Positions 1,913 through 24,161 of a DNA stretch of 38,688 nt are shown here, in pieces. Each line of letters starts with the position of its first letter. The first letter of the stretch is position 1. This DNA is from a virus (Duplodnaviria > Heunggongvirae > Uroviricota > Caudoviricetes). Made by a program: the position numbers and the translations under genes. Location of the stretch: IMG/VR virus record IMGVR_UViG_2703718837_000002; one strand, 5' to 3'. The notes under the pieces are model-generated. The model was not told the DNA's origin and did no database searches. It saw only the letters and a list, made by a program, of their open reading frames with translations.

Positions 1913-3832
1913 ATGGAACAGTTCAATATCAATAAAGGGGTGACGATTAAGCCGGGGCTTGACGTGCTTCCCCCGCCGGTGACTGATGATGAATATCGCG
2001 CATTAATGGCTGGTGAGGACCGCTATCTGATGACGGAATCCAACACCCTGGAGGAAATCGAGGCTACGTTCTTCTATGACACGCCGATCCACTGGTGTGC
2101 TACGGATTTACTGGAGGCGATTAGTTCTACTCGTTTGCAGTTACACCGGATCATGCAGGCATTTGTCCGGGCATTGAACCAGAAGCTGAATGGTACCGGA
2201 ATCTCTGCGGGGAGTGATAAAACGGGCGATGTGGCCCAGAGCGGCGCGCGCGCGATCGGCGGCGCTGAAATTGGTCGGGCACGTAACGTTAACGGGCTGC
2301 CGGTCCTGCCAGCCATTATTCCGCTCAGTGATGGTCAGACTATCAGCATTCTGTTTCATAGCCCGACAGCGGAAAACCGGATCACTAATAGCGATACGCT
2401 GGTTGCTTTCCAGTTCTTACTGAATAAAAAAGACGTTACTCACACCGTTGCTCCGATGAGTGGACGTGATATGACGCTGGCGCAGGTCACCATGAAACTT
2501 GCCAACCTTGCAGAGAAAAACTCGGCAAAATTCCAGCGTGCGCAGAAGAAGAAAAAAGCCCTAGTTGATGAAATAACCCAACTACAGGCTGACAGTGACC
2601 AGAAAGAGGATGCCATGAGCGACCTCGCGGATCAGGTGGCAGCGGTAGAAGGCCAGAAGGCAGATCTGGAGCAGAAAATTAACGCGGTTGCTTCGGAAGC
2701 GGATTCTCTTTATCAAGAAAATGAGCGTTTGCAGGCGGAGATTGATCAGCTCAATCGCACTGGTGGGCGCGATACCATTGCTCCAGCGGGGATGACTGGT
2801 GGGCACTCTCGCGCGCTGACGGATCGCCTTGCCAGTATCAAAAATCGTATGCATATGGACGGGGAAACAACGCTCAGTAATGGTGCATCAATGAAGCAAT
2901 TCATTGGGGACGGCGAAGGGTATATCCAGTTAACCGATCCGGATGGCAGCGTGTACATGATCAAGGCTAAATCCATACAGGGTGTGGACATGGCAGATGC
3001 GATCGGCAAGCTGTTTAAAGCCTATAAAGCGGGTAATGTATCGGAATATCTGGTCCTGCCAGAAGAACATAAACCGGAAAACGTCGAACCTGAACCGGCG
3101 GAGGATACCGGTAGCTCTTCGCCTGAACCAGAAGTCTCTGTAGGTGCATATCGATATGCCCTGCAAATGCGTCCGGCGGCCCCTGGCGCGATACCTGAAG
3201 GTAACAAAGCAATTCTGCCGCGCCCTGATGAAGGTGACCCGTATTATGAATATGCACGCTACGGCATTGCTACTTACGATACCCCGCTTTCTGATCAGCA
3301 AATGAGTGAGTACGATCTGAAGTTATTGCCTCGCGAGGATTCTTTCGACTTTCTGGCGAAGACACTTACTAATGGTCCGTTTGGCAAATATGCACAAAAA
3401 GCTCTGGAGCTGGCCACCAGCTCACCAGACGAGTTCCGCGTAATGCTGAAGACTCAGTTTCAAAAAACTTTCCCCAATATTGCGTTTCCGGGTGGCGTTG
3501 GCACCGAGAAAATGGTGCAGAGCATGATCAATGCATTGCAGGCCGAAGTCGGTGAGATTACTCAGCCAGAACCGGCCCCGGCACAGCCTGATGAAACGGT
3601 TAGCGAGGCAGATGCAGAGGCTAATAAAGCCATTGAATATCTCAATAACGTGATGGATATGCAAAGCACTGACATGGCGGAGATCCGTAACGCCCGGGGT
3701 AATGTCCGGGAAGCGATTGCAGCCCTTCAGGCTGCCGGGCGTTTTGAGGAAAACGAAGAGCTGGTTAATGGCGCAGCTCGCCACCTGGCTGATCTGCTGG
3801 TAGCAATCCAGAAAGCGGGGGTAGCGGCATGA
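1913..3832 (+). CDS. darA: DarA, virion-packaged defence-against-restriction protein (639 aa)
   Basis: 639-aa ORF starting 2 nt after the hdf stop; coiled-coil Q/E-rich centre; size and operon context as in P1 darA. Confidence 0.8.
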   Translation: MEQFNINKGVTIKPGLDVLPPPVTDDEYRALMAGEDRYLMTESNTLEEIEATFFYDTPIHWCATDLLEAISSTRLQLHRIMQAFVRALNQKLNGTGISAGSDKTGDVAQSGARAIGGAEIGRARNVNGLPVLPAIIPLSDGQTISILFHSPTAENRITNSDTLVAFQFLLNKKDVTHTVAPMSGRDMTLAQVTMKLANLAEKNSAKFQRAQKKKKALVDEITQLQADSDQKEDAMSDLADQVAAVEGQKADLEQKINAVASEADSLYQENERLQAEIDQLNRTGGRDTIAPAGMTGGHSRALTDRLASIKNRMHMDGETTLSNGASMKQFIGDGEGYIQLTDPDGSVYMIKAKSIQGVDMADAIGKLFKAYKAGNVSEYLVLPEEHKPENVEPEPAEDTGSSSPEPEVSVGAYRYALQMRPAAPGAIPEGNKAILPRPDEGDPYYEYARYGIATYDTPLSDQQMSEYDLKLLPREDSFDFLAKTLTNGPFGKYAQKALELATSSPDEFRVMLKTQFQKTFPNIAFPGGVGTEKMVQSMINALQAEVGEITQPEPAPAQPDETVSEADAEANKAIEYLNNVMDMQSTDMAEIRNARGNVREAIAALQAAGRFEENEELVNGAARHLADLLVAIQKAGVAA

Positions 3833-4194
3833 CACTATCAGCTATTGAGTTAATGGACCTCAGCGATAAGTTGGATGCTCTGATGTCCAAAGCGGCTACC
3901 GCGAGTGGCATGGAGTTGCTGGATATCAGCGATGAAATTGACCAGATCATGCAACAGATGGGGTACGGCGCGTCCGGCGGCAGTAGTGGCGAGGAAAAAC
4001 AACCTTCGGTACATGATGGTGTGCCAAAACTGGTTGCTGATTTCCTAGCTGATAAATTCGTCGATCAGAGCACAGATGCATTTATCGGTACGTTACAGGA
4101 CTTGAGTCAATATGTTGGCACATACATCGACCTGGACCAGGTTAAACAGCACACGGCGGCATGGATAGCCGCCAATATTCAAGAGGCAGCATAA
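3829..4194 (+). CDS. ddrA: DdrA-like small protein (121 aa)
   Basis: ATGA overlap with the darA stop; assigned by size and position in the dar operon. Confidence 0.55.
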   Translation: MTLSAIELMDLSDKLDALMSKAATASGMELLDISDEIDQIMQQMGYGASGGSSGEEKQPSVHDGVPKLVADFLADKFVDQSTDAFIGTLQDLSQYVGTYIDLDQVKQHTAAWIAANIQEAA

Positions 4195-4206
4195 GGCGTA
4201 ACAGGG

Positions 4207-7194
4207 ATGAGCTTAAGCGATCAGGTGGTAATGGCCACCAGCATAGAAACGCTGATCGAGCTGCTAAAAAACCTGCCCGATTTCGGGCGGGTTTCGTATG
4301 TGGTGACAGCGAAGGGTGACGAGGTAAAAACAGCGTTTGATATCGTCGATGCCTCGGCTCTTTTGGTATCCAATACTCTGGACGGGAAAATTAACCCTGA
4401 CTATCCCCAGGAACTTCAGCCGCGCGACCGGACCCGCGCATCCAGCCTTCTTCAGGTTAACCAGATATCCAAGGATTTGCGGCCAGCTCAGCTTACCGAT
4501 TCCGGTTTATCCAGCCATGGCGCGCCGATAATTGGCGAGGACAATGCCGTTGAGTCAGGTAATGGGCGGACCATGGGGATCATTAAAGCCTATCAGGACG
4601 GTAATGCGGATCGGTATCGGGAGTACCTGATTGAACATGCGACCGAATTCGGCATACGGCCTGAAAAGGTTGAATCAATGACGGCTCCGGTACTGGTGCG
4701 CCGCCGGTTAACTAAGGTTGACCGCGTTCAGTTTGCCAAGGACTCAAATATTTCTGATCTTCAGGAAATGGCAGCCAGTGAAAAGGCTTTTGTTGATGCC
4801 GACAGCATAACACCGGCGATGATGGCGTTGTTTAACCCGTCAGAAAGCGGAGATCTGCTTAGCCGCAGTAATGACGCGTTTATTCGCGGATTCATGACGC
4901 AAGTTGGTGCCACACAGGCTGCTGGCCTTGTAACGGAAGATGGGCGACCAACACGGCAACTTGTAGACCGTATACAAAACGCGATCTTTGCCAAGGCATA
5001 TAAGGATGCGCGCCTGGTAAGGATGGTTGCAGAAGAACCTGATCCGGATATGCGTAATGTTCTGACGGCGCTTAATGCGGCGGCCAATGATTTTGTCCAG
5101 ATGCAGGCTTTATCAGGAGAAGCGCACAAGCAGGCTGTGACAACTATCGTTGATGGTATTGAAACAGCGGATAGCCTCGATAAAAAGGCGCTGGCGGCAT
5201 TGAAAGATGCGGTAGACCTGGTAAGGCAATCGAAGGAGTCAGGCCAACATATTACCGATGTTATTGCTCAGGGGGATATGTTCAGCGAAACAGCCCCGGA
5301 AGTGAAAGCTCTCGCGTTGTTCATCGTCGCGAATAACCGTAGCGCGAAGCGTATGGCCACCGCCTTTAAATTGATGGCTCAACGTATCAATGATGAGTTA
5401 CAGCACCAGGGCCAGGCGCTCGGGGATATGTTTGGCGGCGGCGATGTGTCGTTACAGGATATCCTTCGCCAGGTATCTCAGGAACTGGAAAACGAAGGTA
5501 TGCAAGGGATATCTGGCGGTCTTTTCGAGTCAGCTTCCGGCGGTAGTTACAACGGTGTTGCTCCATATACCAGCTTGCTATTACATCGGGCATCCGGCAT
5601 CAAAGACATTATTCATCTGATCAGGCTGCTATCCCGTACAGATCCCCAGGATGAACAGCTTGTTCAAGTGCTTGCGCATTTTGTTCGAATGCCTGTTGCC
5701 GACGTGAAAAAATGGTGCCGATTATTCGGTATCAGCAATTCGTTACTTCGCGGCTTGTTAAATCACGCATCCTCCCTTGGGCGCGATGGCTTTGACGAGA
5801 TAGCGCAGGCTATAAAAAACGGAGATATGCCACCAGCTATTGACTGGTTTTCCATTCGCCCAACCAGGGTGAAAGCATTCCTTAGCGCGGCGCATTCGGC
5901 ATCACCATTGGCAGAAATGGTTCAGAGGTTGTCGCTCATATTCACAGACCATACCGCGTTGGGTGATCTGACTCTGGACGAGATGAAAGAAGCCTCCATT
6001 CAGTGGTCCGATCAACAAAATGAGGTTAACTCTGACTTCTTGCCAGCATTCAGGAAGGCCGTTAGTAAAGCGGATGATGCCCGTGGAATTCTGAAGGCAT
6101 TTAAGGCATTGCAAAGTCGGGTTAATAAACATGTCGGTGATATCGATGGGGTAACGGCGGAAGGCAGGGATATCCTTAAAGAGCACGGCATAACGCCAGA
6201 GTTTATTGATGAGATCAGGACGGATATGCAGCGTGAGGTCGTATCGTCCCTGCAAATTGTAGCCAGAGCGTTGGCGGATGCTAATCCGAAGAGTGCGGCC
6301 ATTGTTAACCGGGTTATTGGTGATATTGAAGCATCGGAGGGCATGGGGGCGCTGAAACTCTTCCTTTCGCGAGCGTTTAATCCTAACGGCAATATTCTCC
6401 CTGGCATTATTGGTGAGGCTAAAAGGTATGTCAGTGAAGAAGAACTTGAGCAGCTTGACCAACTACTTAAGCGATTCTCATATAACCCGCAGACACGCTG
6501 GCAAATGAATCAGCGAAGTATGGGTTCGGTTCACGAGAAAGTGTTATCTGCCATGAACAGTGCGATCGCAAACTCATCCGTATCTGAAGAAAAAGCTCTT
6601 GAGTGGGCCGACTCTTTTATCACGGAAGAAGTGGAAGAAGCCCGCGCTGGACAGAATGGTGGGATAGACCTGCGCAAGGAACTTGCTGATATTTATCGCC
6701 TGACCGGCGGTAAAATTTCGACCTTATCAAAGGTGGTTCACCACCAGGGAAGGGCATATGCAAATCTTAATGGTGTTGTTGCTGTCAATTTGAACGATGA
6801 AAATGCAAGTGCACTGTGGCACGAGCTGGGTCATCATCTTGAGTACAGTAACCCTGGTTTGTTAGAGAAAGCCCGGTCATTCCTGAAGGCCAATGTTGAA
6901 GGGGATAAGCCATCTTTCGTCAATATCGGTGGGCGTGGCAAGCCTGAATGGTGCTTCAGATCTCGATTGAGTAATATTTATATGGCGAAGGTATACCCGC
7001 CAGCCTCAGTAAGTAACACCGGGAAAATTCGGCAGAAATCACCGACTATTTCCAAAACGTCAGCAACGGAAGTATTCTCTATGGCTCTTCAGTTGTATCA
7101 TGACAAAGAGGCCGCTGCCGCATCACTGATGAATGGTGACGGATTGCTGGAACTGTTATTAGGTGTGGCAAAGGAGCTAAATAATGCAGATTAA
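4207..7194 (+). CDS. ddrB: DdrB-like large protein (995 aa); carries a C-terminal HELGH (HExxH) motif
   Basis: Long ORF in the dar operon; HELGH encoded at 6820-6834; assigned by size and position. Confidence 0.6.
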   Translation: MSLSDQVVMATSIETLIELLKNLPDFGRVSYVVTAKGDEVKTAFDIVDASALLVSNTLDGKINPDYPQELQPRDRTRASSLLQVNQISKDLRPAQLTDSGLSSHGAPIIGEDNAVESGNGRTMGIIKAYQDGNADRYREYLIEHATEFGIRPEKVESMTAPVLVRRRLTKVDRVQFAKDSNISDLQEMAASEKAFVDADSITPAMMALFNPSESGDLLSRSNDAFIRGFMTQVGATQAAGLVTEDGRPTRQLVDRIQNAIFAKAYKDARLVRMVAEEPDPDMRNVLTALNAAANDFVQMQALSGEAHKQAVTTIVDGIETADSLDKKALAALKDAVDLVRQSKESGQHITDVIAQGDMFSETAPEVKALALFIVANNRSAKRMATAFKLMAQRINDELQHQGQALGDMFGGGDVSLQDILRQVSQELENEGMQGISGGLFESASGGSYNGVAPYTSLLLHRASGIKDIIHLIRLLSRTDPQDEQLVQVLAHFVRMPVADVKKWCRLFGISNSLLRGLLNHASSLGRDGFDEIAQAIKNGDMPPAIDWFSIRPTRVKAFLSAAHSASPLAEMVQRLSLIFTDHTALGDLTLDEMKEASIQWSDQQNEVNSDFLPAFRKAVSKADDARGILKAFKALQSRVNKHVGDIDGVTAEGRDILKEHGITPEFIDEIRTDMQREVVSSLQIVARALADANPKSAAIVNRVIGDIEASEGMGALKLFLSRAFNPNGNILPGIIGEAKRYVSEEELEQLDQLLKRFSYNPQTRWQMNQRSMGSVHEKVLSAMNSAIANSSVSEEKALEWADSFITEEVEEARAGQNGGIDLRKELADIYRLTGGKISTLSKVVHHQGRAYANLNGVVAVNLNDENASALWHELGHHLEYSNPGLLEKARSFLKANVEGDKPSFVNIGGRGKPEWCFRSRLSNIYMAKVYPPASVSNTGKIRQKSPTISKTSATEVFSMALQLYHDKEAAAASLMNGDGLLELLLGVAKELNNAD

Positions 7195-7492
7195 AATCGC
7201 AGCGCCATTAGGTGGAGATGCCATTATCGAATTTGATGATAATGAAGAAGTTTCCGGGCGTTTAAGCATTATCTCCGGTGACATTACCGAGGACATGATC
7301 GCTGAAGCCATAGCTGGGGCAAATCCCAATAGCTATATGGGATTCGTTAACACCCTTGATGCTCCCGCAAGTGATGTTCTCCGAACGCTGCATCTTTACG
7401 CTGGCTGGTTTGTTGATTGGCCAGCAGTAGATGGTGGCGATGAGGACGACGACGATGATTTTGGTGATCATGTAGACCAGATCGTATATTGA
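7184..7492 (+). CDS. Small acidic protein (102 aa) at the end of the dar operon (P1 hxr position)
   Basis: Overlaps the ddrB end by 11 nt; D/E-rich C-terminus (DGGDEDDDDDFGD); followed directly by a terminator. Confidence 0.5.
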   Translation: MQIKIAAPLGGDAIIEFDDNEEVSGRLSIISGDITEDMIAEAIAGANPNSYMGFVNTLDAPASDVLRTLHLYAGWFVDWPAVDGGDEDDDDDFGDHVDQIVY

Positions 7493-7496
7493 AGAA

Positions 7497-7523
7497 ATCC
7501 CGCCAATCGGCGGGATTTTTTTT
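7497..7523. terminator. Intrinsic terminator between convergent operons
   Basis: Stem ATCCCGCC/GGCGGGAT with 4-nt loop followed by T8 (7516-7523); sits between the + strand dar operon and the minus-strand ssb operon. Confidence 0.7.
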
Positions 7524-8304
7524 AATCGCTTTCCACTTCTTCCGTGGTGTTTTCTTGCAGTTCTGTTAATGCAGCACGACATAGGTTCCGGGCATTGGCT
7601 ATAGCCACACTTTTGACTTCATCCGTCATCGTGCAGGTAATGTACTGATCGAGTTCTTCAGCGCGGATGATGCTTTTGCCAATCAGAAACTGTATTTGCC
7701 ATAGCAGATCGGCATCCATAATCAGAATTTCTGCCGGGCCTTCAGGGCCAGCCGGGAAGGAAACATAAGACTGTTTGCCCAGGCCGACAACTCGACAACT
7801 TGCTTCAAGAATTGCGCGCTTGAGGTCTGACTTTATAACGGAAACAGGTTGATTTTCACCAGTGATTACGCCGTTGACATGGAAAGGCATGTAGCTTGAA
7901 ATACGCTCCACTTTCCACACGCCAGCAAGCGATCCTTCATGCAGCACAATGGGGGTAACCGCGAGTTTCATCTCACCATATAACTGCTGGCAGATAGCTG
8001 GATTGCTGAATACATCTAAAGGCTCACATTCAAACAGCGGCGCAATCTGCATGAGGTCCATCATGGTCATCCCTGGGGTACGAGCAGTAATGAATTTGCG
8101 CATACCAGTATCCATTGCGCTCCAGATTGCTACACCATGCTTTTTGCTCACTTCTTCAGTAAAGCCAAGGTGGCACATGATGGTTTTTTCGATAGCCAGA
8201 GCAGAGATAGAAACCTTTTCGCCAGGTACTCCATCATTATTGATGGTCACTTCGACACTCTGGCCATTACGCAGGCGGTATTGAATTGCTTTAGTATTTT
8301 CCAC
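7522..8304 (-). CDS. Hypothetical protein (260 aa), last gene of the ssb operon
   Basis: Clean ORF, 6-nt gap to the upstream gene; no motif I can assign; acidic C-terminal tail. Confidence 0.55.
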   Translation of the reverse strand: MENTKAIQYRLRNGQSVEVTINNDGVPGEKVSISALAIEKTIMCHLGFTEEVSKKHGVAIWSAMDTGMRKFITARTPGMTMMDLMQIAPLFECEPLDVFSNPAICQQLYGEMKLAVTPIVLHEGSLAGVWKVERISSYMPFHVNGVITGENQPVSVIKSDLKRAILEASCRVVGLGKQSYVSFPAGPEGPAEILIMDADLLWQIQFLIGKSIIRAEELDQYITCTMTDEVKSVAIANARNLCRAALTELQENTTEEVESD

Positions 8305-8310
8305 GTTAAA

Positions 8311-8988
8311 TCACTCCACTACAAACCAGTCACATGCCAGTAAGTCGCCTACAGAAGGAACCCACGGAACAACTACACCTTGTGCATTTTTTAAGGCGAA
8401 ATAAGCACCATACGGAACGAGGTCGCCGGGGAAATATCCCTTAATGGCTTCCATTCGTGCCGGGTACTGTCCTTCAGGAACCAGCCAGCAGAATTGGTTT
8501 TCGCCGTTCCACCCGCGTCGAGCAACTTTCTTGCCATCCTTCAGCCACATCAGCGCGTCAGAAAAGTCGGCTGCTTCAAGGTCGATTTCTTCTTGTAGAG
8601 TAGCGATACCGCCAGCAGAAATAGTTACGTCCCTGGCTGTAATGAATGTCACCCCATTGTGACCTTCAATGCTGAGCGATACCCCATTTTCGAAGAAGTC
8701 GTTAGTCCGACTAAAGCCTTCTTCAAATGTTTTTTCTGGTGAATAGGACAGAGATCCGTCCTCATAAGCGACCAGATATCCGCCAATTTCTGGTCGGTGT
8801 TTTTGCAAAAACATTTTATCAACATGGACTTTTACCCCTTCTGGCTCAACGACTTCGATGTTGCAAAGAAGGACCACATCCATTAGGGCGATAATTTCGA
8901 TATCTTTGATTTTTGAGGCACGAACTGTTTTATGGCTTTTGTATTTTGGAAGTGCCGTCAAAAGCTCTTTCGTTGTCATGTTATTCAT
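8311..8988 (-). CDS. Two-domain protein (225 aa): unknown N-terminal domain plus C-terminal DUF2829/Tad2-like domain
   Basis: C-terminal about 85 aa contains FSDALMWLKDGKKVARRGWNGENQFCWLV ... PWVPSVGDLLACDWFVV, which matches my recollection of the DUF2829 consensus; not verified by HMM. Confidence 0.55.
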   Translation of the reverse strand: MNNMTTKELLTALPKYKSHKTVRASKIKDIEIIALMDVVLLCNIEVVEPEGVKVHVDKMFLQKHRPEIGGYLVAYEDGSLSYSPEKTFEEGFSRTNDFFENGVSLSIEGHNGVTFITARDVTISAGGIATLQEEIDLEAADFSDALMWLKDGKKVARRGWNGENQFCWLVPEGQYPARMEAIKGYFPGDLVPYGAYFALKNAQGVVVPWVPSVGDLLACDWFVVE

Positions 8989-9002
8989 AGTCTTTCCTCT
9001 GC

Positions 9003-9185
9003 TTAAAACCTGATGTATTGCGCCTTCAGGTGGGTCAGGAATGTTTTCCCACCAGCGAAAGCAATATCTCGGGGTGTTCTATTCGTTAAAAGCGCGTGCC
9101 ATTGCCAACTTTGGCGTTTTTTAGCGAGTTCGTGCTTTTGTTGGCGTCTGGACCACCGCTTTTCTTTCAGTCGTTTTTTACTCAT
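9003..9185 (-). CDS. Small basic ORF (60 aa) between ssb and the 225-aa gene
   Basis: Fills the gap between ssb and the 225-aa gene with 5-nt and 14-nt spacers; K/R-rich; coding status uncertain. Confidence 0.3.
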   Translation of the reverse strand: MSKKRLKEKRWSRRQQKHELAKKRQSWQWHALLTNRTPRDIAFAGGKTFLTHLKAQYIRF

Positions 9186-9190
9186 AAACT

Positions 9191-9679
9191 CTAAAACGGA
9201 ATATCGTCGTCAAAGTCCATTGGAGGTTCGTTATTGGCGTTGCTCTGAGGTTTGCCGCCACCGCTGTATTGCTGGTGGTTTTGAGGTTGGTTTGATTGCC
9301 CCCAGCCATTTGAGGACTGTGAATCGTCACGGCGAGCGCCGATCATTTGCATGGTGCCGCCCTGGCTGACGATAATTTCCGTCGTGTAACGTTCTACACC
9401 GGCGTCATCTGTCCACTTACGGGTTTTAAGTTTCCCTTCGATGTAGACCTGAGAACCTTTTCGTAAATACTCACTCGCAATTTCAGCAAGTTTTCCGAAC
9501 AAAACGACTTTATGCCATTCTGTTTGCTCTTTCTGTTGGCCCGTTTGCTTGTCGCGCCATGATTCATTCGTTGCGATGCTGAGTCCTCCGACCGCTCCGC
9601 CATTTGGTATATACCTGATCTCCGGGTCTTGCCCCAGGGTACCAATCAGGATGACTTTGTTTACACCGCGTTGTGCCAC
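9191..9679 (-). CDS. ssb: Single-stranded DNA-binding protein (162 aa)
   Basis: N-terminal OB-fold signature [23 protein letters not shown], Gly/Gln-rich linker and acidic tail DFDDDIPF. Confidence 0.92.
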
Positions 9680-9698
9680 TTATCTTACCTAATAAAAT

Positions 9699-9715
9699 AA
9701 ATTAATTAGAGCAAT
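9699..9715 (-). promoter_or_regulatory. C1 operator-like site upstream of ssb
   Basis: AAATTAATTAGAGCAAT, one mismatch to the reverse complement of ATTGCTCTAATAAATTT. Confidence 0.5.
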
Positions 9716-9848
9716 AATGTATATCTTTGAAACGTGGCTAACAAGTGATTTGCATTATCCTGTGCCTTCTAAAGGGATCGAGTCAGTCGGTATTGGCTGT
9801 GAATGGGTGTTTGTCCTGGAGCGTAAAAAATTCGCTTATGAGGTCTTT

Positions 9849-10406
9849 ATGAAGGGAAAAACAGCCGCAGGAGGCGGTGCAATTTGCGCTATCGCGATGA
9901 TGATTACCATCGTGATGGGTAATGGCAATGTGCGAACCAACCAGGCGGGGCTTGAGCTTATCGGAAACGCTGAAGGTTGCCGACGTGATCCATACAAGTG
10001 CCCGGCGGGTGTATGGACTGACGGGATCGGTAATACACACGGGGTAACGCCGGGTGTGCGAAAAACAGACCAGCAAATCGCCGCTGATTGGGAAAAGAAT
10101 ATCCTGATCGCTGAACGCTGTATTAATCAGCACTTCCGGGGCAAAGACATGCCCGATAATGCCTTCAGTGCAATGACAAGCGCGGCATTCAATATGGGAT
10201 GCAATAGCTTACGGACCTACTACAGCAAAGCGCGAGGCATGCGAGTAGAAACGTCCATCCACAAGTGGGCGCAGAAAGGGGAATGGGTGAATATGTGTAA
10301 CCATCTCCCTGATTTCGTGAACAGTAACGGCGTCCCCCTGCCCGGGTTAAAGATTCGCCGTGAAAAAGAACGCCAGCTTTGCCTGACGGGGCTGATCAAT
10401 GAATAA
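9849..10406 (+). CDS. lyz: SAR endolysin Lyz (185 aa)
   Basis: Starts MKGKTAAGGGAICAIAMMITIVMGNG (signal-arrest-release segment) with a GAGG RBS; near-identical to my memory of P1 Lyz; the ORF track's upstream start at 9717 is rejected. Confidence 0.85.
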   Translation: MKGKTAAGGGAICAIAMMITIVMGNGNVRTNQAGLELIGNAEGCRRDPYKCPAGVWTDGIGNTHGVTPGVRKTDQQIAADWEKNILIAERCINQHFRGKDMPDNAFSAMTSAAFNMGCNSLRTYYSKARGMRVETSIHKWAQKGEWVNMCNHLPDFVNSNGVPLPGLKIRREKERQLCLTGLINE

Positions 10407-10993: not shown

Positions 10994-11215
10994 ATGGTTA
11001 ATGCCAATCCTTGCGCACGCCCTGAATTTATCTGGCGCTTTTACTCCTGCCAGAAACGTCACTATCACTTCGTAATTGCACCGACAGAAGATGAGGCCCG
11101 CTCTCTGCTTCCTGACGCTCCCTGCATTTTCTCTGCCCGCTTTTCCACTGATTCGCGCAACTCTCTCAGTTACTGGTGCCTCCCTGTTAACGCTTCTGCT
11201 CAGGAGGGACTATGA
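10994..11215 (+). CDS. Icd-like small protein (73 aa)
   Basis: ATG at 10994 preceded by GAGG; ATGA overlap with the Ant-like gene; FIWRF...EDEAR..L...C.F.AR pattern resembles Icd-like proteins; the ORF track's longer 10823 start is rejected. Confidence 0.6.
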   Translation: MVNANPCARPEFIWRFYSCQKRHYHFVIAPTEDEARSLLPDAPCIFSARFSTDSRNSLSYWCLPVNASAQEGL

Positions 11216-12303
11216 GAACGTCATTAGTCACCCGTGAAGAAATGATTGAGGCAATTGAACAGCACACATCCTGTATCAGTACCAGGGATATACCGGGTGT
11301 TATTGCCAACTACTTCATGATCACCAAACAACTTTACCGGAGAAAGGACAAGAACGCGGTTCACCGCATTCTGTTGTCTGATATCCGCGAATACCTGCTC
11401 GAACAGGGTCGTCTTGATTATGCAACCGTAACCGCCGAAGCACGCAAGGAGGCACACAGGATGAAAGCAACTAATGTTAAATCAGAAAAAATTACCCTGC
11501 CTTCAGTTCAGGAATCCGAGCTGGTGGTTGTTCAGAATCAGTCTGATGAAATTCCCGTTCTGGAATGGCTGGGAGTGCGTGTCGTAACGACCGAAACTCT
11601 TGCTAGAGGGTATGGTACCGATGAAGCCAATATTCGTAAAAATTTGTCTCGCAACTCCGATCGCTTTGAAGAAGGCAAGCATTACTATCTCTTAACCGGT
11701 TCAAAGTTAAAGGAATTTAAAAGGCTAGTGACTATTAGTCACTTGGTTAGCAAATATACAAGTCAGGTAATTCTCTGGACAGAGCGCGGCGCTGCACGCA
11801 TGTCTAAGATCGTGGACACAAATGAAGCATGGGCATTCTTTGAAAAACTGGAAGACAGCTACTTCCGACAAAAAGAACAGCAACCGGTCTCAATTCCCCA
11901 GACGCTTCCAGAAGCTCTGCGCCTGGCTGCCGAGTTGGCAGAACAGAAAATGCAACTGGAACAACAGCTGGTGGCCGCAGCCCCTAAAGTCGATTTTGCC
12001 GACCGGGTATCAGTGGCTAAGGGGATCCTGATTGGAAATTTTGCAAAGGTTGTTGGACTTAAGCAAAACGCGCTGTTTGCCTGGTTACGGGAGAACGGCA
12101 TCCTGATTGCGTCCGGCGGACGTAAAAATGTACCGTTTCAGCAGTACATAAACGCCGGGTATTTCACGGTGAAAGAAGTGGTGCTGGATGATGAAGATGG
12201 CTACCAGATACGGTTGACGCCCCAGCTAACGGGGAAAGGCCAGCAGTGGCTGACGCGTAAACTGCTCGATGCAGGTTTATTAAAGCCTGTAGCGGCTGAG
12301 TGA
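11212..12303 (+). CDS. Ant-like antirepressor paralog A (363 aa), Bro-N/ORF6N-like centre and KilA-C/Ant-like C-terminus
   Basis: Translationally coupled to the icd-like ORF as in P1 immI; about 90 percent identical to paralogs B and C outside a divergent central patch. Confidence 0.7.
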   Translation: MRTSLVTREEMIEAIEQHTSCISTRDIPGVIANYFMITKQLYRRKDKNAVHRILLSDIREYLLEQGRLDYATVTAEARKEAHRMKATNVKSEKITLPSVQESELVVVQNQSDEIPVLEWLGVRVVTTETLARGYGTDEANIRKNLSRNSDRFEEGKHYYLLTGSKLKEFKRLVTISHLVSKYTSQVILWTERGAARMSKIVDTNEAWAFFEKLEDSYFRQKEQQPVSIPQTLPEALRLAAELAEQKMQLEQQLVAAAPKVDFADRVSVAKGILIGNFAKVVGLKQNALFAWLRENGILIASGGRKNVPFQQYINAGYFTVKEVVLDDEDGYQIRLTPQLTGKGQQWLTRKLLDAGLLKPVAAE

Positions 12304-15175: not shown

Positions 15176-18100
15176 ATGAACAAGCTATCTATGGGGGTGT
15201 TTCGCTGTTCAAGTGTCAGCGAAATATTGAAATATATTAGGGCAATAACATTTCGCCGAGCGCCGATTAAATACGGCGTGGAAAAGGTGGAAGGCAAAAG
15301 CTATGACCGACTGCGCCGGGAGGCGAATCAGAAGGCGATAGATTTGCTTAATTCGCTGGTGGACGGCGCGACACTGACAGATGAACAGCGCCAGATCCTG
15401 GCTGGGTACACCGGTGAAGGCGGCATTGGCGGGTCCGTCTCCGAATATTACACACCAAAGCCGATCGCTGAAGGTGTCTGGGAGATCATGAAGCTCTACG
15501 GCGCGGACGTAGGTAACACTCTGGAACCATCGGCGGGAACCGGCGTTTTTAATGAGACAAAACCGGTTGGTACGGTGATGACCGCGACTGAGATCAGCAG
15601 TGTTTCCGGTCGTATAAACCAGTTGTTACACCCGGAAGACAGCGTACAGATTTCCCCGTTCGAACAGCTGGCTATAAGCACCCCTAACGATTCATTCGAC
15701 CATGTTGTGGGTAACGTTCCGTTCGGCGGTCGTGATAACACACGCAACATCGATAAGCCTTACGCAGAAGAAACGGACATGGGTTCTTACTTCATGCTCC
15801 GCATGCTGGACAAGATAAAGCCTGGCGGATTCATGTGTGTGATTGTGCCGCCGTCAATTGTTTCAGGTTCAAACATGAAGCGGTTACGCCTGCGCCTATC
15901 CCGTAAAGCTGAATTTCTTGGCGCTCACCGCTTGCCTACCGGTACTTTTGACGCAAACGGGACCAGTACAGTCGTTGATGTGGTGCTGATGCGCAAACAT
16001 CCGGCAGAGATGGCTGAGAAAATCCCCCTGGTGGATGAAAGCACTCTTGAATCGGCAAATGTGCTTTGGCCAACGTTTATTTCTGGCAAGTGGTTTGAAA
16101 AGGACGGCCGCCGGTTTGTTCATGGTACCCAGGAAAAGGGCTTCCAGGGGCGTATTGAGGTTCGTGCCGACGGGCAGATTGATAACCAGGCTCTTAAAGC
16201 GAAGCTGATTCATCGTTTCGAAAGTCGTATCGACTGGTCTTTGCTCGATATGGCTGAACCGTCACCGACCGCAGATGTTGTTGATGAAGGGGAAATGCGC
16301 CTGATTAATGGCGTATGGCAAAAATATGCTGGTGGTCGCTGGATTGAAGCTGATGCTGGTAAGGAGCTTAAGATTGATGCTGCCAGTTATGGCGCGGATA
16401 GCTGGGAGGCTCTTCAGCGTAACCTGACTACAACAGAAGGCCGTCTCGGTATGACATTTACCCAGATGGCAAATGTCCGCGATAAGTACACCACATCAAT
16501 CAGCGACGATATGGTGCAGCTGGTGGACTGGATTAACAGCCAGCCTGAAAAATACCGTGAACGCTTGTATCGCGGGGCGATGATTGGCCGGATGTTAATT
16601 GAATATCAGGATATGAAGGCCGCTGGGCATAGTGCTGAACAAATCGAACAGCAGCGCCTTTCTCTGGTGTCCCGTTTGCAGGCAGAGATTGACCGTTTTG
16701 GTAACCCCGGTCGCGGTCCGATAGCTAAATTATCGGGAAGCGGTGCGCGCGCCTGGTTTGCTTTCCGTGGTGCAATTAAGCTGGATGGCACTATTTCTGA
16801 CGAGCTGACAGGAAAGCTGGTTACGCATGATTCCAGCGCCAGTTATGACTCCACCAGCTATCAGGACACCCTGCGTTATCTCTATAGCGATCTTACCCGC
16901 GATCCAATCCAGCTCGATGATTTCCGCCTTGCGTTTACCGGCGAACTGCCAGCCAGTGATGAAGAGTTGCTTAATTTATTGGCCAGCACCCCTGGTATTG
17001 CGGTTTCACCGTATGGCGGGATTGTTCCGTTCGCCCGCGCCACCAGCGGCGACATTAACGAGATAGTGGCTCCAAAACAGGAATTCCTTGCCACACTCCC
17101 CGACGGTCCAGTAAAGAACAACGTCCTTAATCAGCTGGCAGCGATCGAAGAGAAGCGCATCAAGACGCCAGCAGAGAATATCCGCTTTAAGCTCAATAGC
17201 CGTTGGTTCGACCGCTCCGTCATTCTGGAGTTTTTGCAGGAAAACGGCTATCCGGATCTGCGCTATGTGCAGTCAGTGCAGCTGGAAGGCGACGAAATGG
17301 TTTCTGACACCTATCACGGTGGTGATGGTCTGTTCGTCGGACACCGATACGGTGTCGTCCAGCGCAAGGATAAAGAAACAGGAGAGATCCGCTACGAGTG
17401 GGACCGTAAATCAGGTGAAAACGCGACCGGGTTCCCGGCACAGCTGGAAAAGTATCTCAATGGTGCGCGTATCGGTGGCAAAGATAGCGCGACGGCGAAC
17501 GGCTACCGCGAGCAGATGGCACTGCTTGAGGACCAGTTCAATAAGTGGATCAAGACGCACGATCGCTACGATGAGCTGGTTGCCAAATACAACGATGTGT
17601 TCAATAGCAATATCCCGTATGAACACTCTGGCGATCCGCTTGGGTTGAAGGGATTAAGCGGTAAGCGCCAGCCATTTGATTACCAGAATAGCGAGGTGCG
17701 CCGACTGTCCGAAGATGGGCGCGGCATCCTGGGCTTCGGTACCGGGCTGGGTAAAACCACGACCGCGCTGGCGCTTGAGGCGTTCAACTATGAGAACGGT
17801 CGCTCCACCCGTACTGCTTATGTAGTGCCTAAATCAGTGCTGGAAAACTGGTATTACGAAGCAAAAGAGTTCCTGAGTGAAGAAGCCTTCAGTAACTACT
17901 TGTTCGTTGGACTGGATGTACTAATGGACGGCGATCAGATTCGCCAGGTTCCGGTGCTCGATGAGAACGGTAAACCTGTCCTTGGTGCTGATGGCACTCC
18001 ACTTATGCGCGATGCCCTTAAACTGGCAGATGAAGCCACTATCACGGCGCGTATGAACGCGATCCCGCACTCAAATTACCGTGCAGTCGTGTTTACCAAA

Positions 18101-21100
18101 GAACAATACGCCCGCATTCCGCTACGTGATGACACCGTAGATGAGCATGCACAGGATATGCTTTATGACTTCGTTGCTGCCGGGCGCGTAGCCAGCGCAA
18201 TGGACTCCGACTCCCACCGCAAAGAGGCCGCGCGTCGCCGGGTATTGTCGGAGTATTCAGATACCGGTACCGAAAAAGCAGAGAAGTATCCGTACTTTGA
18301 GGATATGGGCTTCGACAGCGTGATTGCTGACGAAGGCCACAACTACCGCAATAGCTATAAAAATGGTCGCGAAGCGTCACAGCTGGCCTATCTGCCCACC
18401 AGCGCGGTGGCGCAATCGGCGCGAGATATGGCAATCAAAAACGCGTACCTGATGAAAAAGAATGGTGGGCGTGGACCGGTTCTCCTGACTGCAACGCCAG
18501 TCGTTAACACCCCGATCGATGCATACAACATGCTTTCTCATGTTCTGCCGAAGGAATACTGGCAGAAGATGGGGATCTACGGTCCTGATGACTTCGTTAA
18601 ATTCTTCGGCAAGACCAGGCTGGAAACGGTACAGAAAATTAGCGGTGAAGTTGAAGAAAAAATGGCGCTGGTGGGCTTTGAAAACCTTGATGCGCTGCGC
18701 GGTATATTCCATCGCTGGGTAACGCTTAAAACGGCGGAAGACGTTAAGGATACCGTGGAGATCCCGGAGCTGGACGAACACCAGCAGGATGCACCACTTA
18801 CTGAAGAACAACTGGCGGCGTATGAAGAATTGCGTCAGCAGGCGGAAGCGGCGGCCAAAGCCAACAATGGCGTAACGACCTCGGTCAATGAAGACGGCGT
18901 GATTGAGCACGAGAAAGCCCGTCCGATCTTCTCAATAATCAGGGATATGGACCGCGTATGTACTGACATGGACCTGTACTATCGCCGGATCACCTATCGT
19001 TTCCTGCCGGAGTATGCCGATGCGGTGCAGCAGCTGGCGGACAGTTTGCCTAAACAAGCCACCAGCGAAGACGACGACAGTGATGATTCAATCACGCAGC
19101 AATCGCAATACTCCCTGATAGATAAGGGCGAGTTTATTCAGTTGCAGGTTCCGGAAGCGTTCGAGCAGGAAGTGAATAAGCGCCTGGCCAGGTTTGGCAT
19201 TGACGAACAGACCGTAACTCACCCCGTTACGCCCAAATACGCGAAGCTGATTGCCACGCTGAAGGAGTTTTTCCCGGAAGGTAAGCAAATCATCTTCACG
19301 GACGAAAAAACGCAGCACCAGAAGCTCAAGCGCATTATCTGCAATGCTCTTAACCTTGAACCTTCAAAGGTGGGGATCCTGAATGCTCAGACGGTTGCCG
19401 AGGCAGGTAAAACCGGTAAGAAACTGAAAGCGGTTAAACCGCCGAAAGAGTTACCGGATGAACCAACAGATGCACAGATAGCGAAATACAACGAGCAAAT
19501 GGCTCTGTATGACGCCTATATCGCGCAGCAAAATGAAATGTCGTTGGGCGGTCTGGAAAAGATTGCAGCCGACTTCCAGGAGGGCCGGACTCCGATCATC
19601 ATCTGCAACAAAAAGGCAGAGGTGGGTATCAACCTGCATCGAGGAACGACTGACATCCATCATCTGACGTTGCCGTGGACTCCAGCCAGTATCGCACAAC
19701 GTAACGGTCGCGGTGCCCGAGTTGGCTCCAACCGTGCAAGCGTTCGCGTTCACTACTACTGCGGCAAGGGTTCTTTCGATGAATACCGACTGAAGACGCT
19801 GAAGCGTAAAGCAGGCTGGATCTCCGATATCCTCCGTTCAGATAAGTCAGAAATGGAGAACGCCGACGCCAACGATATGATCGAAATGCAGATGTATACC
19901 GCTAAGGATGATGGCGAACGTCTGGCAATGATGCAGGTTCAAATGGATAAGGCGAAAGCCGCGCAACGCGCTCGCCAGAAAGAACAGGCTACTATCGACC
20001 TTCAGAACTACATCAAGGCGCAGCACGCAGCTGGCGAGGATGTGGAGGTACTTACCGCTGAATTAGAGCGAAGCAAAGCGGAACTTGAAAAGACCACCGC
20101 CGACGTCGACAAATTCAAACAAGCAGCAATGGCCAAAGCAGCTGATAACGCAGACTGGAAGGCACGTTGGGGGAGTGTCCATAACGCTGACCGTATGTTG
20201 TTAGCTCGATATCGCGCTTCGTTAAAAAATGCTATTCAACAGAAGGCTAATATCTCTCAAGCCATCTCCCGCTATGAGAAATTATTGAACCGTACCCAGA
20301 AGGCCGCGACGGATATCAAACGCCTGCGCCCGCTGGTGGAGGATGCAATAAATAAAGGCATTCTGGATGTTGATCCTGACCTGGTTAACCATGCGAGTGA
20401 GTTCCTTGTTATCGGCGATCGCTCATGGCGTGTAGGCCAATACTATGATTGTGCCGGTGATATCGTCCGCATTAAGTCTCTGGACTTCGACAGCCAGCGC
20501 GCAGACGTGGAGATCATCTTTACCTTCAAAGGCACAAAATCTGGTAACTGGGATGTGAAGACGCTGGATAAACAGGTGGATGTAACTCCCGATGAAGATG
20601 CTGTTATGCAGAAAATCAGTGGTGGCGTCTCCATCGCCGGGATTAACGACATCATTTCCTGTGACGATTTCTACCGTTTCCAGCAGCGCGGCATGATCAA
20701 AATCACTGACTCGTACGGCGTTCAGACTACAGAGTCAGGCTATAGCATTGATTTTGTTGGTACCTATACGGACCCACTGAAGCATGCGGTTTACCCGGAT
20801 CGCCGTGACGGCGCGCTGAAGTCGTCAATTGCAAAATGGGTGCTTGGTATGATGTCTGAAGGGAATAACCGCCAGGTCCGTTTGGCAGAAGTATTCCTGA
20901 CTGAACTGTTTGGCTCCAATTATGGCGATGTAATCGCGTCATATGGAGATACGCTATCCCCTGAAGCAATTCAGGAGAAAATAGCGGATGCGATCGCCAG
21001 AATGCCGGAGAAAACAAGCCAGGGGGCTACTCGTAACGGGGATTCTGAACTTGAGGTCACCAATGCCATTTTCGGTACCCATGAGTTCCGGGCGTCAGAT

Positions 21101-21943
21101 TATGAGATCACCACAGCACAGTTTGGCACCATTGGCATTTACAGCAATAAAGACGAGATCAAGCAGGCAATGGACGCAGCAAGCGCGCGCATCGCAGCAG
21201 AACGGGAAGCCAATCTGAATCATGCAGTCGCCGCGCTGACTCAATCGTGGGTAACAGCAATCAGGGAGGCCGCCACCACAGGGAAAATCACACCGGCAAT
21301 TGCGGATGTCGTAAACGACGGCTCTAAATTTATGGATGCCTATCAAATGGATGCGGTGCAGTTGCCATCAGCCTATGGCCAACTCAGCTATCGCATGACC
21401 TACAATCTGGTATCAATGTTTTCCGACCTTGCCATCCTTGGGCTGGTGGACCTTAACGAGGTTACGCCGGAATTGCTCAGCATTCGCAATAATCATGTGG
21501 AGATATTGCACAGAATTAACACGGTACTTGCCGGGCGCACCGATGAAGAAAAACAGGCAGACGCTGATCGGATAAACCTGGCCCTAGGCAACATCACGGA
21601 GGAAGAAATTGCCGCCAGAAACGAGAAACAAGAAGAGTTATCATCAATACAGGGTGATGCCACCAGCATAGCTCAGTCTCTTGGTCTGAATTATCGCGTA
21701 TCCACCGCCGACCTGAAGATGATGTACGCACCAAAATTCGCCGCTGGCGAGGTATTTGGGCTTCAGGAGGCGTCCGGCATGAAAGGCATTCTTTTCCGTG
21801 CGAAAGACGCAATCAAGGAAAAATTCGGCGCTCGCTGGCTGCCAGCGAAGGCGAAGAACAGCGATTTCCCAGGCAACTGGTGGATTATCGAGACAAAACA
21901 CAACGTGGCGGACGTTCTGGCCGTCATCCAACAATACGCATAA
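15176..21943 (+). CDS. darB: DarB, giant anti-restriction protein (2255 aa): N6-adenine methyltransferase-like N-terminus plus SF2 helicase core
   Basis: NVPF (NPPF-type motif IV) at 15713-15724; Walker A GTGLGKTT near 17748-17771; DEGH motif II at 18329-18340; length matches P1 DarB. Confidence 0.85.
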   Translation: MNKLSMGVFRCSSVSEILKYIRAITFRRAPIKYGVEKVEGKSYDRLRREANQKAIDLLNSLVDGATLTDEQRQILAGYTGEGGIGGSVSEYYTPKPIAEGVWEIMKLYGADVGNTLEPSAGTGVFNETKPVGTVMTATEISSVSGRINQLLHPEDSVQISPFEQLAISTPNDSFDHVVGNVPFGGRDNTRNIDKPYAEETDMGSYFMLRMLDKIKPGGFMCVIVPPSIVSGSNMKRLRLRLSRKAEFLGAHRLPTGTFDANGTSTVVDVVLMRKHPAEMAEKIPLVDESTLESANVLWPTFISGKWFEKDGRRFVHGTQEKGFQGRIEVRADGQIDNQALKAKLIHRFESRIDWSLLDMAEPSPTADVVDEGEMRLINGVWQKYAGGRWIEADAGKELKIDAASYGADSWEALQRNLTTTEGRLGMTFTQMANVRDKYTTSISDDMVQLVDWINSQPEKYRERLYRGAMIGRMLIEYQDMKAAGHSAEQIEQQRLSLVSRLQAEIDRFGNPGRGPIAKLSGSGARAWFAFRGAIKLDGTISDELTGKLVTHDSSASYDSTSYQDTLRYLYSDLTRDPIQLDDFRLAFTGELPASDEELLNLLASTPGIAVSPYGGIVPFARATSGDINEIVAPKQEFLATLPDGPVKNNVLNQLAAIEEKRIKTPAENIRFKLNSRWFDRSVILEFLQENGYPDLRYVQSVQLEGDEMVSDTYHGGDGLFVGHRYGVVQRKDKETGEIRYEWDRKSGENATGFPAQLEKYLNGARIGGKDSATANGYREQMALLEDQFNKWIKTHDRYDELVAKYNDVFNSNIPYEHSGDPLGLKGLSGKRQPFDYQNSEVRRLSEDGRGILGFGTGLGKTTTALALEAFNYENGRSTRTAYVVPKSVLENWYYEAKEFLSEEAFSNYLFVGLDVLMDGDQIRQVPVLDENGKPVLGADGTPLMRDALKLADEATITARMNAIPHSNYRAVVFTKEQYARIPLRDDTVDEHAQDMLYDFVAAGRVASAMDSDSHRKEAARRRVLSEYSDTGTEKAEKYPYFEDMGFDSVIADEGHNYRNSYKNGREASQLAYLPTSAVAQSARDMAIKNAYLMKKNGGRGPVLLTATPVVNTPIDAYNMLSHVLPKEYWQKMGIYGPDDFVKFFGKTRLETVQKISGEVEEKMALVGFENLDALRGIFHRWVTLKTAEDVKDTVEIPELDEHQQDAPLTEEQLAAYEELRQQAEAAAKANNGVTTSVNEDGVIEHEKARPIFSIIRDMDRVCTDMDLYYRRITYRFLPEYADAVQQLADSLPKQATSEDDDSDDSITQQSQYSLIDKGEFIQLQVPEAFEQEVNKRLARFGIDEQTVTHPVTPKYAKLIATLKEFFPEGKQIIFTDEKTQHQKLKRIICNALNLEPSKVGILNAQTVAEAGKTGKKLKAVKPPKELPDEPTDAQIAKYNEQMALYDAYIAQQNEMSLGGLEKIAADFQEGRTPIIICNKKAEVGINLHRGTTDIHHLTLPWTPASIAQRNGRGARVGSNRASVRVHYYCGKGSFDEYRLKTLKRKAGWISDILRSDKSEMENADANDMIEMQMYTAKDDGERLAMMQVQMDKAKAAQRARQKEQATIDLQNYIKAQHAAGEDVEVLTAELERSKAELEKTTADVDKFKQAAMAKAADNADWKARWGSVHNADRMLLARYRASLKNAIQQKANISQAISRYEKLLNRTQKAATDIKRLRPLVEDAINKGILDVDPDLVNHASEFLVIGDRSWRVGQYYDCAGDIVRIKSLDFDSQRADVEIIFTFKGTKSGNWDVKTLDKQVDVTPDEDAVMQKISGGVSIAGINDIISCDDFYRFQQRGMIKITDSYGVQTTESGYSIDFVGTYTDPLKHAVYPDRRDGALKSSIAKWVLGMMSEGNNRQVRLAEVFLTELFGSNYGDVIASYGDTLSPEAIQEKIADAIARMPEKTSQGATRNGDSELEVTNAIFGTHEFRASDYEITTAQFGTIGIYSNKDEIKQAMDAASARIAAEREANLNHAVAALTQSWVTAIREAATTGKITPAIADVVNDGSKFMDAYQMDAVQLPSAYGQLSYRMTYNLVSMFSDLAILGLVDLNEVTPELLSIRNNHVEILHRINTVLAGRTDEEKQADADRINLALGNITEEEIAARNEKQEELSSIQGDATSIAQSLGLNYRVSTADLKMMYAPKFAAGEVFGLQEASGMKGILFRAKDAIKEKFGARWLPAKAKNSDFPGNWWIIETKHNVADVLAVIQQYA

Positions 21944-21976: not shown

Positions 21977-22417
21977 ATGGCCACACTATCTGATACAATA
22001 AAACCGAATAAAACATATCTTGAGGCGGTACTCCGTACAGCGTTGTTAGGAAAGACAGAAGACGAATACGTTGATTTCTTCCTGTCAGGGCTACGCGGGC
22101 GATTACTGAAAAATCCCCGCCTGTACCGCAGCTATGGTCCATACTGGCCGGAAATTAAAAAATTATTACTGGAGCGCGGTTATGGTAATTTCGGTCGTCT
22201 CGTTGACCGTGACGTTCGCAAAATTTATCGTTATGACCGCCCGGCGCTAACACTCATAGCCGCGACGCTCTACAGCCAGGAGCGTTTTGATAATGGTCAG
22301 ATATACTCAGCCTGGCATTTACTGCCAGTGCCTGAAGAAGTTGACGACCAGGACTATGAGTTTGAGTCTTACGATTTGGAAGTTGAAGCCTTGGCACAGG
22401 CTGGAGAGAAAACTTGA
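21977..22417 (+). CDS. ulx: Ulx-like protein (146 aa)
   Basis: Immediately downstream of darB; by position. Confidence 0.5.
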   Translation: MATLSDTIKPNKTYLEAVLRTALLGKTEDEYVDFFLSGLRGRLLKNPRLYRSYGPYWPEIKKLLLERGYGNFGRLVDRDVRKIYRYDRPALTLIAATLYSQERFDNGQIYSAWHLLPVPEEVDDQDYEFESYDLEVEALAQAGEKT

Positions 22418-22662: not shown

Positions 22663-22670
22663 TGGTTTTG

Positions 22671-24144: not shown

Positions 24145-24161
24145 ATTGCTCTAATAAATTT
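24145..24161 (+). promoter_or_regulatory. C1 operator (perfect 17-mer)
   Basis: ATTGCTCTAATAAATTT. Confidence 0.75.

Follow-up and report, generated by a model that had tools for sequence, protein, structure and literature searches.

A Tad2-like gene upstream of isaA in the ssb operon of a P1-like phage-plasmid as candidate exchangeable counter-defence cargo

Which genes occupy the interval downstream of ssb in P1-like phage-plasmids, where phage P1 carries the insertion sequence (IS) IS1 and its flanking open reading frames (ORFs), and do they act together? The question is raised by a stretch of 38,688 nucleotides (nt) of viral DNA (Caudoviricetes; IMG/VR record IMGVR_UViG_2703718837_000002), referred to below as the window, in which ssb is followed by a 60-codon ORF (designated orf60), by a gene for a protein of 225 amino acids (aa; designated tad2L) and by a gene for a protein of 260 aa, identified below as isaA. 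An earlier reading of the letters alone (the sequence-only reading) had proposed that the last two proteins might be partners. The analysis described here makes it fairly probable, in our judgement, that the locus is a C1-controlled operon which carries a Tad2 sponge gene as exchangeable cargo in a slot upstream of isaA, and that P1 is a variant without tad2L. The coordinates of all features are given in Table 1.

The ssb-hxr interval in the window and in P1

Between positions 7400 and 9800 the window was 98.4% identical to Salmonella phage SJ46 and, in part, approximately 95% identical to P1; it is a P1-like (SJ46-type) phage-plasmid. The minus strand carries ssb, orf60, tad2L and isaA head to tail with intergenic gaps of 5, 14 and 6 nt, so that the tight packing described by the sequence-only reading (gaps of 14 nt or less), with its gene coordinates, was reproduced. 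The four ORFs take up the whole of the ssb-to-isaA interval and conserved homologues were found for all four, which are therefore genes rather than chance ORFs.

The operator-like site noted earlier at the head of the block proved to be base for base the 17-nt P1 protein_bind feature 'monovalent C1-controlled operator Ossb/Op21' (NC_005856; alignment A1, comprising the window, SJ46 and P1). With Op21 upstream and ssb as the first gene, the block belongs by its sequence to the C1-controlled ssb operon of P1. A predicted promoter matching P1 P2ssb (Pr21) abuts the operator; its location was carried over from the P1 annotation onto the letters of the window, and it was not called by a simple sigma-70 scan. 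At the other end, where a terminator had been placed at 7497-7523, a strong G+C-rich hairpin of 10 bp stands at the 3' end of the operon. Its predicted energy is -17.1 kcal/mol (z -3.1) when folded on the isaA strand; on the hxr strand, where eight U come after the stem, it is -21 kcal/mol (z -5.4). This hairpin is also kept in SJ46 (alignment A1) and was missed by a simple terminator pattern scan. The description of an accessory block downstream of ssb, bounded by a C1 operator and a terminator, was accordingly upheld, and the block lies in an interval known to be variable among P1-like elements, the ssb-hxr region 'RD-2' (PMC6906374). It was likewise correct that the interval holds no IS element: the four ORFs fill it, and tblastn with P1 InsB and P1 IsaB gave zero matches in the whole window.

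The 260-aa protein, in contrast to its earlier description as unannotatable, proved in tblastn to share 94% identity with P1 IsaA and 99% with the SJ46 'isaA' product, and it matched PHROG family phrog_2326 with an expectation (E) value of 8e-149 over aa 1-260. By sequence, and by its place in the ssb-hxr interval, which is the same in P1 and SJ46, it is P1 IsaA. That it might have replaced P1 genes was ruled out by this identity and this shared position, and clear homology to routine P1 isaA/isaB-type ORFs was one of the two findings which the sequence-only reading had named as counting, in combination, against it; the other was a failure of the two genes to co-occur elsewhere.

Alignment A1 showed that P1 is without exactly the 225-aa gene, tad2L. 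At the P1 junction (...GACTATG, ACAGCAC, AAAATACTAAA) the stretch ACAGCAC (7 nt) links the ribosome-binding site and ATG of tad2L to codon 3 of isaA. A 7-nt microhomology at the junction, AAAATAC, was considered as a deletion footprint and set aside as too short to weigh. Unlike in the window, P1 isaA directly follows orf60 and is itself followed by IS1 and isaB; in the window and in SJ46 nothing but the terminator stands there. Of the 58 P1-type loci taken from IMG/VR, 3 had isaB and 2 had IS1 at the site, and both are therefore peculiarities of P1 rather than features of the group. The earlier statement that an accessory block stands in the place of the P1 IS1 and its flanking ORFs thus holds for the absence of the IS and of isaB, but isaA is itself a P1 gene and the true difference is tad2L.

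The same counts bear on whether the ORFs are meaningless debris at an old IS1 insertion site. The P1 genes were named only for their position beside IS1 ('insertion-sequence-associated') and the variability of the interval (PMC6906374) would suit such an origin; however, IS1 and isaB are rare at the site, the IsaA family is conserved down to approximately 20% identity with a confident predicted fold, tad2L holds a curated Pfam domain, and the frames are intact across hundreds of plasmids. These conservation data rule the debris reading out, and we give it next to no chance.

The Tad2-like protein and the IsaA family

The 225-aa protein is built in two parts. The sequence-only reading had called it DUF2829-like, and aa 141-224 indeed matched PF11195 'Tad2-like', Pfam's present name for DUF2829, over profile positions 2-73 of 73 (E 1.6e-22; 80.3 bits, cut-off 25); the label given by the Prokaryotic Genome Annotation Pipeline is 'DUF2829 domain-containing protein'. 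The best match among solved structures was MoTad2 (PDB 9EIB/8V3E; E 6e-20), with 40 of 89 residues identical (45%) and one 1-residue gap, and further matches were to HgmTad2/AcrIIA7 (8kbi; 4e-10), SPO1 Tad2 (8sme; 7e-9) and SptTad2 (8wjd; 5e-8). On these matches Tad2L belongs to the Tad2 sponge family. A recent preprint describes this family as phage sponges which sequester immune signalling nucleotides and inhibit Thoeris types I, II and IV, Pycsar and CBASS, and reports that MoTad2 binds histidine-ADP-ribose (His-ADPR) as well as cyclic UMP and cyclic CMP (cUMP/cCMP) (bioRxiv 10.1101/2025.08.24.671296). Like SPO1 Tad2 (gp34.65), MoTad2, HgmTad2 and SptTad2, Tad2L is phage-encoded and has a full-length Tad2 domain, in its C-terminal 89 aa, and its gene lies in a repressor-controlled and presumably early operon, where a GAGG Shine-Dalgarno sequence precedes the ATG. 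Characterised Tad2 proteins are single-domain tetramers of approximately 90-105 aa, whereas Tad2L adds a 135-aa Dec-like extension.

This extension, the first 135 aa, had no Pfam match. A profile of the region (A8) matched the Dec protein of phage L (PDB 6E3C) with an E value of 5.4e-6 (aa 52-123 against Dec 52-122), while by single sequence only the E value was 0.37. By the published limits of Dec (OB fold at residues 12-89 and trimer-forming spike at 99-134; PMC11398494), Dec 52-122 corresponds to the end of the OB fold and the trimerising spike. Unlike Dec, the module in Tad2L is fused to a presumably cytoplasmic sponge domain, with no sign of capsid binding. In related plasmids near-identical Tad2 domains were found fused to dUTPase, or with a tail-fibre repeat (PF03406) or a C-terminal crAss001_48 domain (PF21825) (examples of Tad2 fusions: P0076; L170, 4064-4978; P0043; P0081-P0095). 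The dUTPase and the tail-fibre repeat are both trimeric modules. Since the Tad2 domain occurs fused to Dec-like, dUTPase or tail-fibre modules, the N-terminal part of Tad2L looks like an exchangeable oligomerisation scaffold, and by this analogy it probably is one; a trimer-type module at this end could alter the oligomeric state. The dUTPase::Tad2 fusion also hints at a functional link between dUTPase and Tad2.

Within the Tad2 domain the central loop (aa ~170-195, about 8400-8480) had at least four versions that differ sharply although the P1/D6 proteins carrying them are otherwise near-identical (alignment A6), which suggests diversification of the ligand pocket. At L111 / L033 (IMGVR_UViG_2695420521_000002) the domain is split by an insertion of approximately 1.3 kb, probably an IS which inactivates tad2L.

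For IsaA, a word-based search returned only close relatives and one group at 49% identity, while an exhaustive profile search gave 36 cluster representatives with identities down to approximately 20%. An alignment of 19 sequences (A4) showed conserved G-x-L-x-G-x-W-x-V-E-R, G-x-G-K-x-A-Y and A-P-E-L-D-x-Y motifs, and C-terminal tails that are variable and acidic or of low complexity. No match to IsaA (29 kDa; pI 5.0) was found in Pfam, NCBIfam or PADLOC, and a sequence-profile search of the PDB gave only noise (E of at least 0.35). An AlphaFold2 model built from alignment A4 had a mean predicted local distance difference test score (pLDDT) of 88.4 and a predicted template modelling score (pTM) of 0.83; it was used instead of one from a shallow 5-sequence alignment, which was unusable (pLDDT 39). 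Foldseek searches with the model returned nothing below E 0.1 in the PDB, and only P1's own fragment in BFVD. The remote-homology and structure-prediction check proposed earlier for the 260-aa protein has therefore yielded a wide family and a confident model, but no convincing structural analogue.

Scans of genome contigs found no further IsaA relatives, and a scan of viral contigs for distant relatives found one contig only. Searches for the gene gave 16 phage records and 477 plasmids of PLSDB; most of these are non-mobilisable Escherichia/Salmonella elements of approximately 90 kb, and there are a few in Klebsiella, Pantoea, Enterobacter and Serratia. As far as gene order goes, isaA is the conserved last gene of the cassette region in P1-, D6- and more distant phage-plasmids.

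Linkage and reassortment of tad2L and isaA

Two surveys were compared, one based on IsaA (80 IMG/VR loci, 58 P1-type and 22 D6-type) and one based on Tad2L (78 loci, with 59 relatives at 41% identity or above). In the P1-type loci tad2L was directly upstream of isaA in 23 of 58, and the other 35 had a P1-like junction without it. A Tad2 gene was directly upstream in all 22 D6-type loci, whose IsaA is 47-49% identical and in which, unlike the P1-type, the pair adjoins cre, as in phage D6 (dUTPase, DUF2829, isaA). These proportions agree with a report in which DefenseFinder detected Tad2 in 56% of the P1-type and 93% of the D6-type phage-plasmids (bioRxiv 10.1101/2025.09.12.675607). Viewed from the sponge gene, an isaA-family gene came next on the same strand in 58 of the 59 Tad2L relatives, mostly within about 30 nt, the exception being a 61.6-kb Klebsiella-phage-like contig (L143); distant loci that matched only the Tad2 domain had no isaA. 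In complete E. coli genomes, P1-type isaA was found in 378 of 5,426 and tad2L in 213.

All of the more distant IsaA relatives came from P1/D6-like phage-plasmids, in which genes for a C1-type repressor and a cre-like recombinase, together with one or two small ORFs, precede isaA. Directly upstream of isaA these elements had a dUTPase gene (L168), a dUTPase::Tad2 fusion (L170) or a gene for a winged-helix-like protein of 173 aa (L165-L167), and in another distant phage-plasmid (L141) a 228-aa ORF without a Pfam match (4115-4801, plus strand) lies between the Tad2L gene and the isaA-like gene. The co-occurrence check across phage genomes thus came out positive, the two genes being found together elsewhere, in the different genome context of the D6-type loci; the counts support a one-way linkage, in which Tad2L implies isaA downstream and not the reverse.

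Although linked, the parts reassort. One Tad2-domain allele (98-100% protein identity) pairs with IsaA types that are mutually only 48% identical, and N-terminal alleles of Tad2L likewise shuffle independently. The exchange is visible in a mosaic block of the window, which begins midway through tad2L, ends at isaA codon 14 and has 97% DNA identity to phage D6; outside it, D6 isaA has only 48% protein identity to that of the window, and D6-type plasmids match the window isaA over nt 1-43 only. Because the shared DNA ends at codon 14, the 5' end of isaA looks like a recombination arm for a cassette swap, and the site directly upstream of isaA may be a slot at which cargo is gained, lost or swapped by homologous recombination. 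The D6 genes orf115-orf114-orf113 (dUTPase, DUF2829, isaA-like) share with the window the order and spacing of Tad2 and isaA and, at the 97% level, the DNA of the Tad2 domain and of the first 14 isaA codons, whereas they differ in being cre-proximal and not in an ssb operon, in their diverged IsaA, and in a Tad2 protein of 146 aa which is without most of the N-terminal region and has a dUTPase ahead of it.

These data also bear on a two-component counter-defence module, in which IsaA would be a cofactor or chaperone of Tad2L, or a second inhibitor that binds the effector or a second signal. The near-invariant order in the Tad2 clade would fit such a module, as would the presence of the pair in two contexts (the P1-type ssb operon and the D6-type cre-proximal operon) and in the distant L141 and L170; the GGAG Shine-Dalgarno sequence of isaA, which sits within the final codons of tad2L, suggests coupled translation, and both proteins are acidic, like many anti-defence proteins. 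However, isaA often stands without Tad2 (P1, the 35 P1-type loci, L168 and L165-L167; isaA also outnumbers tad2L in complete E. coli genomes), the pairing of one Tad2 allele with strongly diverged IsaA types and the N-terminal shuffling speak against an interface that co-evolves, characterised Tad2 proteins work by themselves (bioRxiv 10.1101/2025.08.24.671296), and the sole Rosetta-stone fusion joins Tad2 to dUTPase, not to IsaA. Because alleles reassort freely, isaA is widespread alone and characterised Tad2 proteins act alone, we consider the two-component module unlikely. The partnership suggested by the sequence-only reading therefore stands as co-occurrence (22/22 and 58/59), but not as an obligate one, since isaA is often without Tad2 and the alleles reassort. 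A bolder proposal is that P1/D6-type phage-plasmids have in Tad2L and IsaA a new counter-defence module of two genes, IsaA being an unrecognised anti-defence protein whose fold has no characterised analogue, and the sponge being carried by a trimeric scaffold that can be interchanged (Dec-like spike, dUTPase or tail-fibre repeat). This is speculative and rather improbable; if it were true, the scaffold would assemble the sponge to a higher order and so change its capacity or specificity.

IsaA could alternatively be a nucleic-acid-handling accessory of early phage DNA metabolism beside SSB, binding structured or double-stranded forms, with the Tad2 gene an unrelated insertion. Its gene shares an operon with ssb in P1-type phages and lies near cre and the RecA-dependent nuclease gene ref in distant phage-plasmids; but it is not beside ssb in D6-type and more distant elements, the matches to double-stranded RNA-binding domains are weak (best Foldseek E 0.1), the family motifs of alignment A4 differ from the RNA-binding motifs of those domains, the protein is acidic, and isaA is dispensable for P1 lytic growth (PMC10695390). 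Taken together, this makes a nucleic-acid role very improbable.

Several points weigh against the favoured reading of a C1-controlled operon with a cargo slot. The loci counted are closely related elements, so that perhaps only four independent lineages stand behind the co-occurrence figures, and the one-way rule that isaA follows Tad2L in 58 of 59 relatives fits the slot and would also be expected if Tad2L depended on IsaA. The presumed co-transcription and timing are taken from the P1 annotation and the tight spacing of the genes. The Dec match spans only 72 residues of Tad2L and leaves the first ~50 aa without assignment, and the hypervariability of the central Tad2 loop between close relatives means that ligand specificity is not transferable from MoTad2.

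Proposed mechanism, neighbouring genes and significance

In the proposed mechanism the block would be the promoter-distal portion of the ssb operon, which C1 represses. Without C1 repression, presumably after infection or on induction, the Pr21 promoter beside Op21 would be switched on and would give one transcript of ssb, orf60, tad2L and isaA, ending at the hairpin held in common with the convergent hxr. The C-terminal domain of Tad2L would most likely sequester a nucleotide-derived immune signal, for which the candidates are cyclic ADP-ribose (cADPR) isomers or His-ADPR of Thoeris, cCMP/cUMP of Pycsar and cyclic oligonucleotides of CBASS, and a host abortive-infection effector would thereby be kept silent; the Dec-like N-terminal part would probably act as the oligomerisation scaffold. 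The slot would accept tad2L, dUTPase, the dUTPase::Tad2 fusion or the 228-aa ORF as cargo, with the conserved 5' end of isaA as one recombination arm, and in P1, the variant without tad2L, isaA would use the ribosome-binding site and ATG of that gene.

Table 1. Coordinates of the features of the window discussed in the text.
Feature	Position	Strand	Description
darA	1913-3832		Dar gene
ddrB	4207-7194		Dar gene
hxr	7184-7492	+	convergent with isaA
Predicted bidirectional intrinsic terminator	7495-7526		between convergent isaA and hxr; hairpin 7495-7518 and A/T tract
isaA	7522-8304	-	260 aa, GTG start; phrog_2326; identity to P1 and SJ46 IsaA
Mosaic exchange block	8262-8633	-	mid-tad2L (Tad2 domain) to isaA codon 14
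tad2L	8311-8988	-	225 aa, two-part; PF11195 and MoTad2 similarity
tad2L, C-terminal Tad2 domain	8314-8580	-	aa 137-225
tad2L, N-terminal Dec-like region	8584-8988	-	aa 1-135
orf60	9003-9185	-	60 codons, very basic product (pI 11.8); between ssb and tad2L; unannotated in P1 and SJ46
ssb	9191-9679	-	162 aa; PF00436, E 4.5e-39; 98-99% identity to P1 and SJ46 Ssb
C1 repressor operator (P1 Op21 / Ossb)	9699-9715	-	ATTGCTCTAATTAATTT, read from 9715 to 9699
Predicted promoter matching P1 P2ssb (Pr21)	9716-9744	-	TTGTTA, 17 nt, TACATT; abuts the operator
lyz	9717-10406	+	longest ORF, 229 aa
ORF6N-KilAC/ANT paralogue	11212-12303	+	
darB	15176-21943		Dar gene
ulx	21977-22417		
ORF6N-KilAC/ANT paralogue	24697-25809	+	
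cre	26403-27434		
ORF6N-KilAC/ANT paralogue	29472-30584	-	

The small gene of the block, orf60, had no match in scans of Pfam, NCBIfam and PADLOC. In P1 its ATG directly abuts the stop codon of ssb (TGAATG). The frame keeps its 60 codons in 81 of 83 copies of the locus, which span 24 distinct DNA variants, with 10 synonymous and 19 non-synonymous substitution sites; this pattern is not decisive, and it is the integrity of the frame that supports orf60 as a gene, probably a real and unannotated one. The finding affects two database entries. P1 IsaA (P1_gp017) is recorded with 320 aa (NC_005856; L002, 4001-4963), its first 58 aa starting from a GTG in another frame that overlaps orf60, and SJ46 gp048, recorded with 281 aa (L001, 4915-5760), likewise starts in a frame overlapping orf60. 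The frame of these N-terminal extensions, which begin at a GTG/ATG, meets a stop at codon 11 or 25 in 41 of the 83 copies, the window included. As the extension frame is so often broken and that of orf60 almost always whole, the 320-aa and 281-aa versions are likely frame artefacts of annotation, and the actual length of P1 IsaA is likely to be about 260-264 aa.

Tad2L has a counter-defence neighbour in the window, the P1 Dar/Ddr anti-restriction locus (darA, ddrA, ddrB, hdf, darB, ulx), and counter-defence genes therefore cluster here. The Dar proteins have no homology to Tad2L or IsaA, and they are late, capsid-packaged and directed against restriction, unlike a cytoplasmic anti-signalling sponge.

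Among the other neighbours, hxr carries a P1 annotation as a possible Xre-like repressor, but its product had no Pfam helix-turn-helix match, and scans of Pfam, NCBIfam and PADLOC were empty. Hxr is extremely acidic (pI 4.05; 23 D+E in 102 aa, with a terminal aspartate run), and it resembles DNA mimics or acidic anti-defence proteins more closely than repressors. On the other side, the longest ORF of lyz begins at the ssb operator, whereas P1 Lyz is a protein of 185 aa which starts MKGKTAAGGG (~9849 in the window), and the extra N-terminal codons are probably untranslated. Three paralogues of 363-370 aa with ORF6N and KilAC/ANT antirepressor domains were also seen; one of them is an insertion, without counterpart at that place in P1, that separates the lysis genes from pro. 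The stretch from ulx to cre (~22400-26400) has no ORFs of the size of the P1 type III res/mod genes; it is filled by short unannotated ORFs and an ANT-like gene and is apparently the variable region RD-1.

That Tad2 occurs in P1/D6 phage-plasmids is already known from automated tools (bioRxiv 10.1101/2025.09.12.675607), and no experimental test of any P1/D6-type Tad2 was found in the literature searched. That literature was not found to describe the clean absence of tad2L from P1, the likely artefacts in the two annotations, a Dec-like module at the N-terminus, the proposed isaA-anchored cassette slot, or the wider IsaA family with its confident but unassigned fold.

The analysis corrects two database annotations (P1 IsaA and SJ46 gp048) and defines a wider IsaA family. 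For the biology of the group it means that P1, a laboratory workhorse and a test phage for signalling defences such as Pycsar, is without a sponge gene that roughly half of its relatives carry, so that P1 with and without an added tad2L would offer a ready-made isogenic comparison for the E. coli immune signal targeted by this sponge clade. In phage-plasmids that are common in the clinic, counter-defence cargo would be exchanged as cassettes at the position upstream of isaA.

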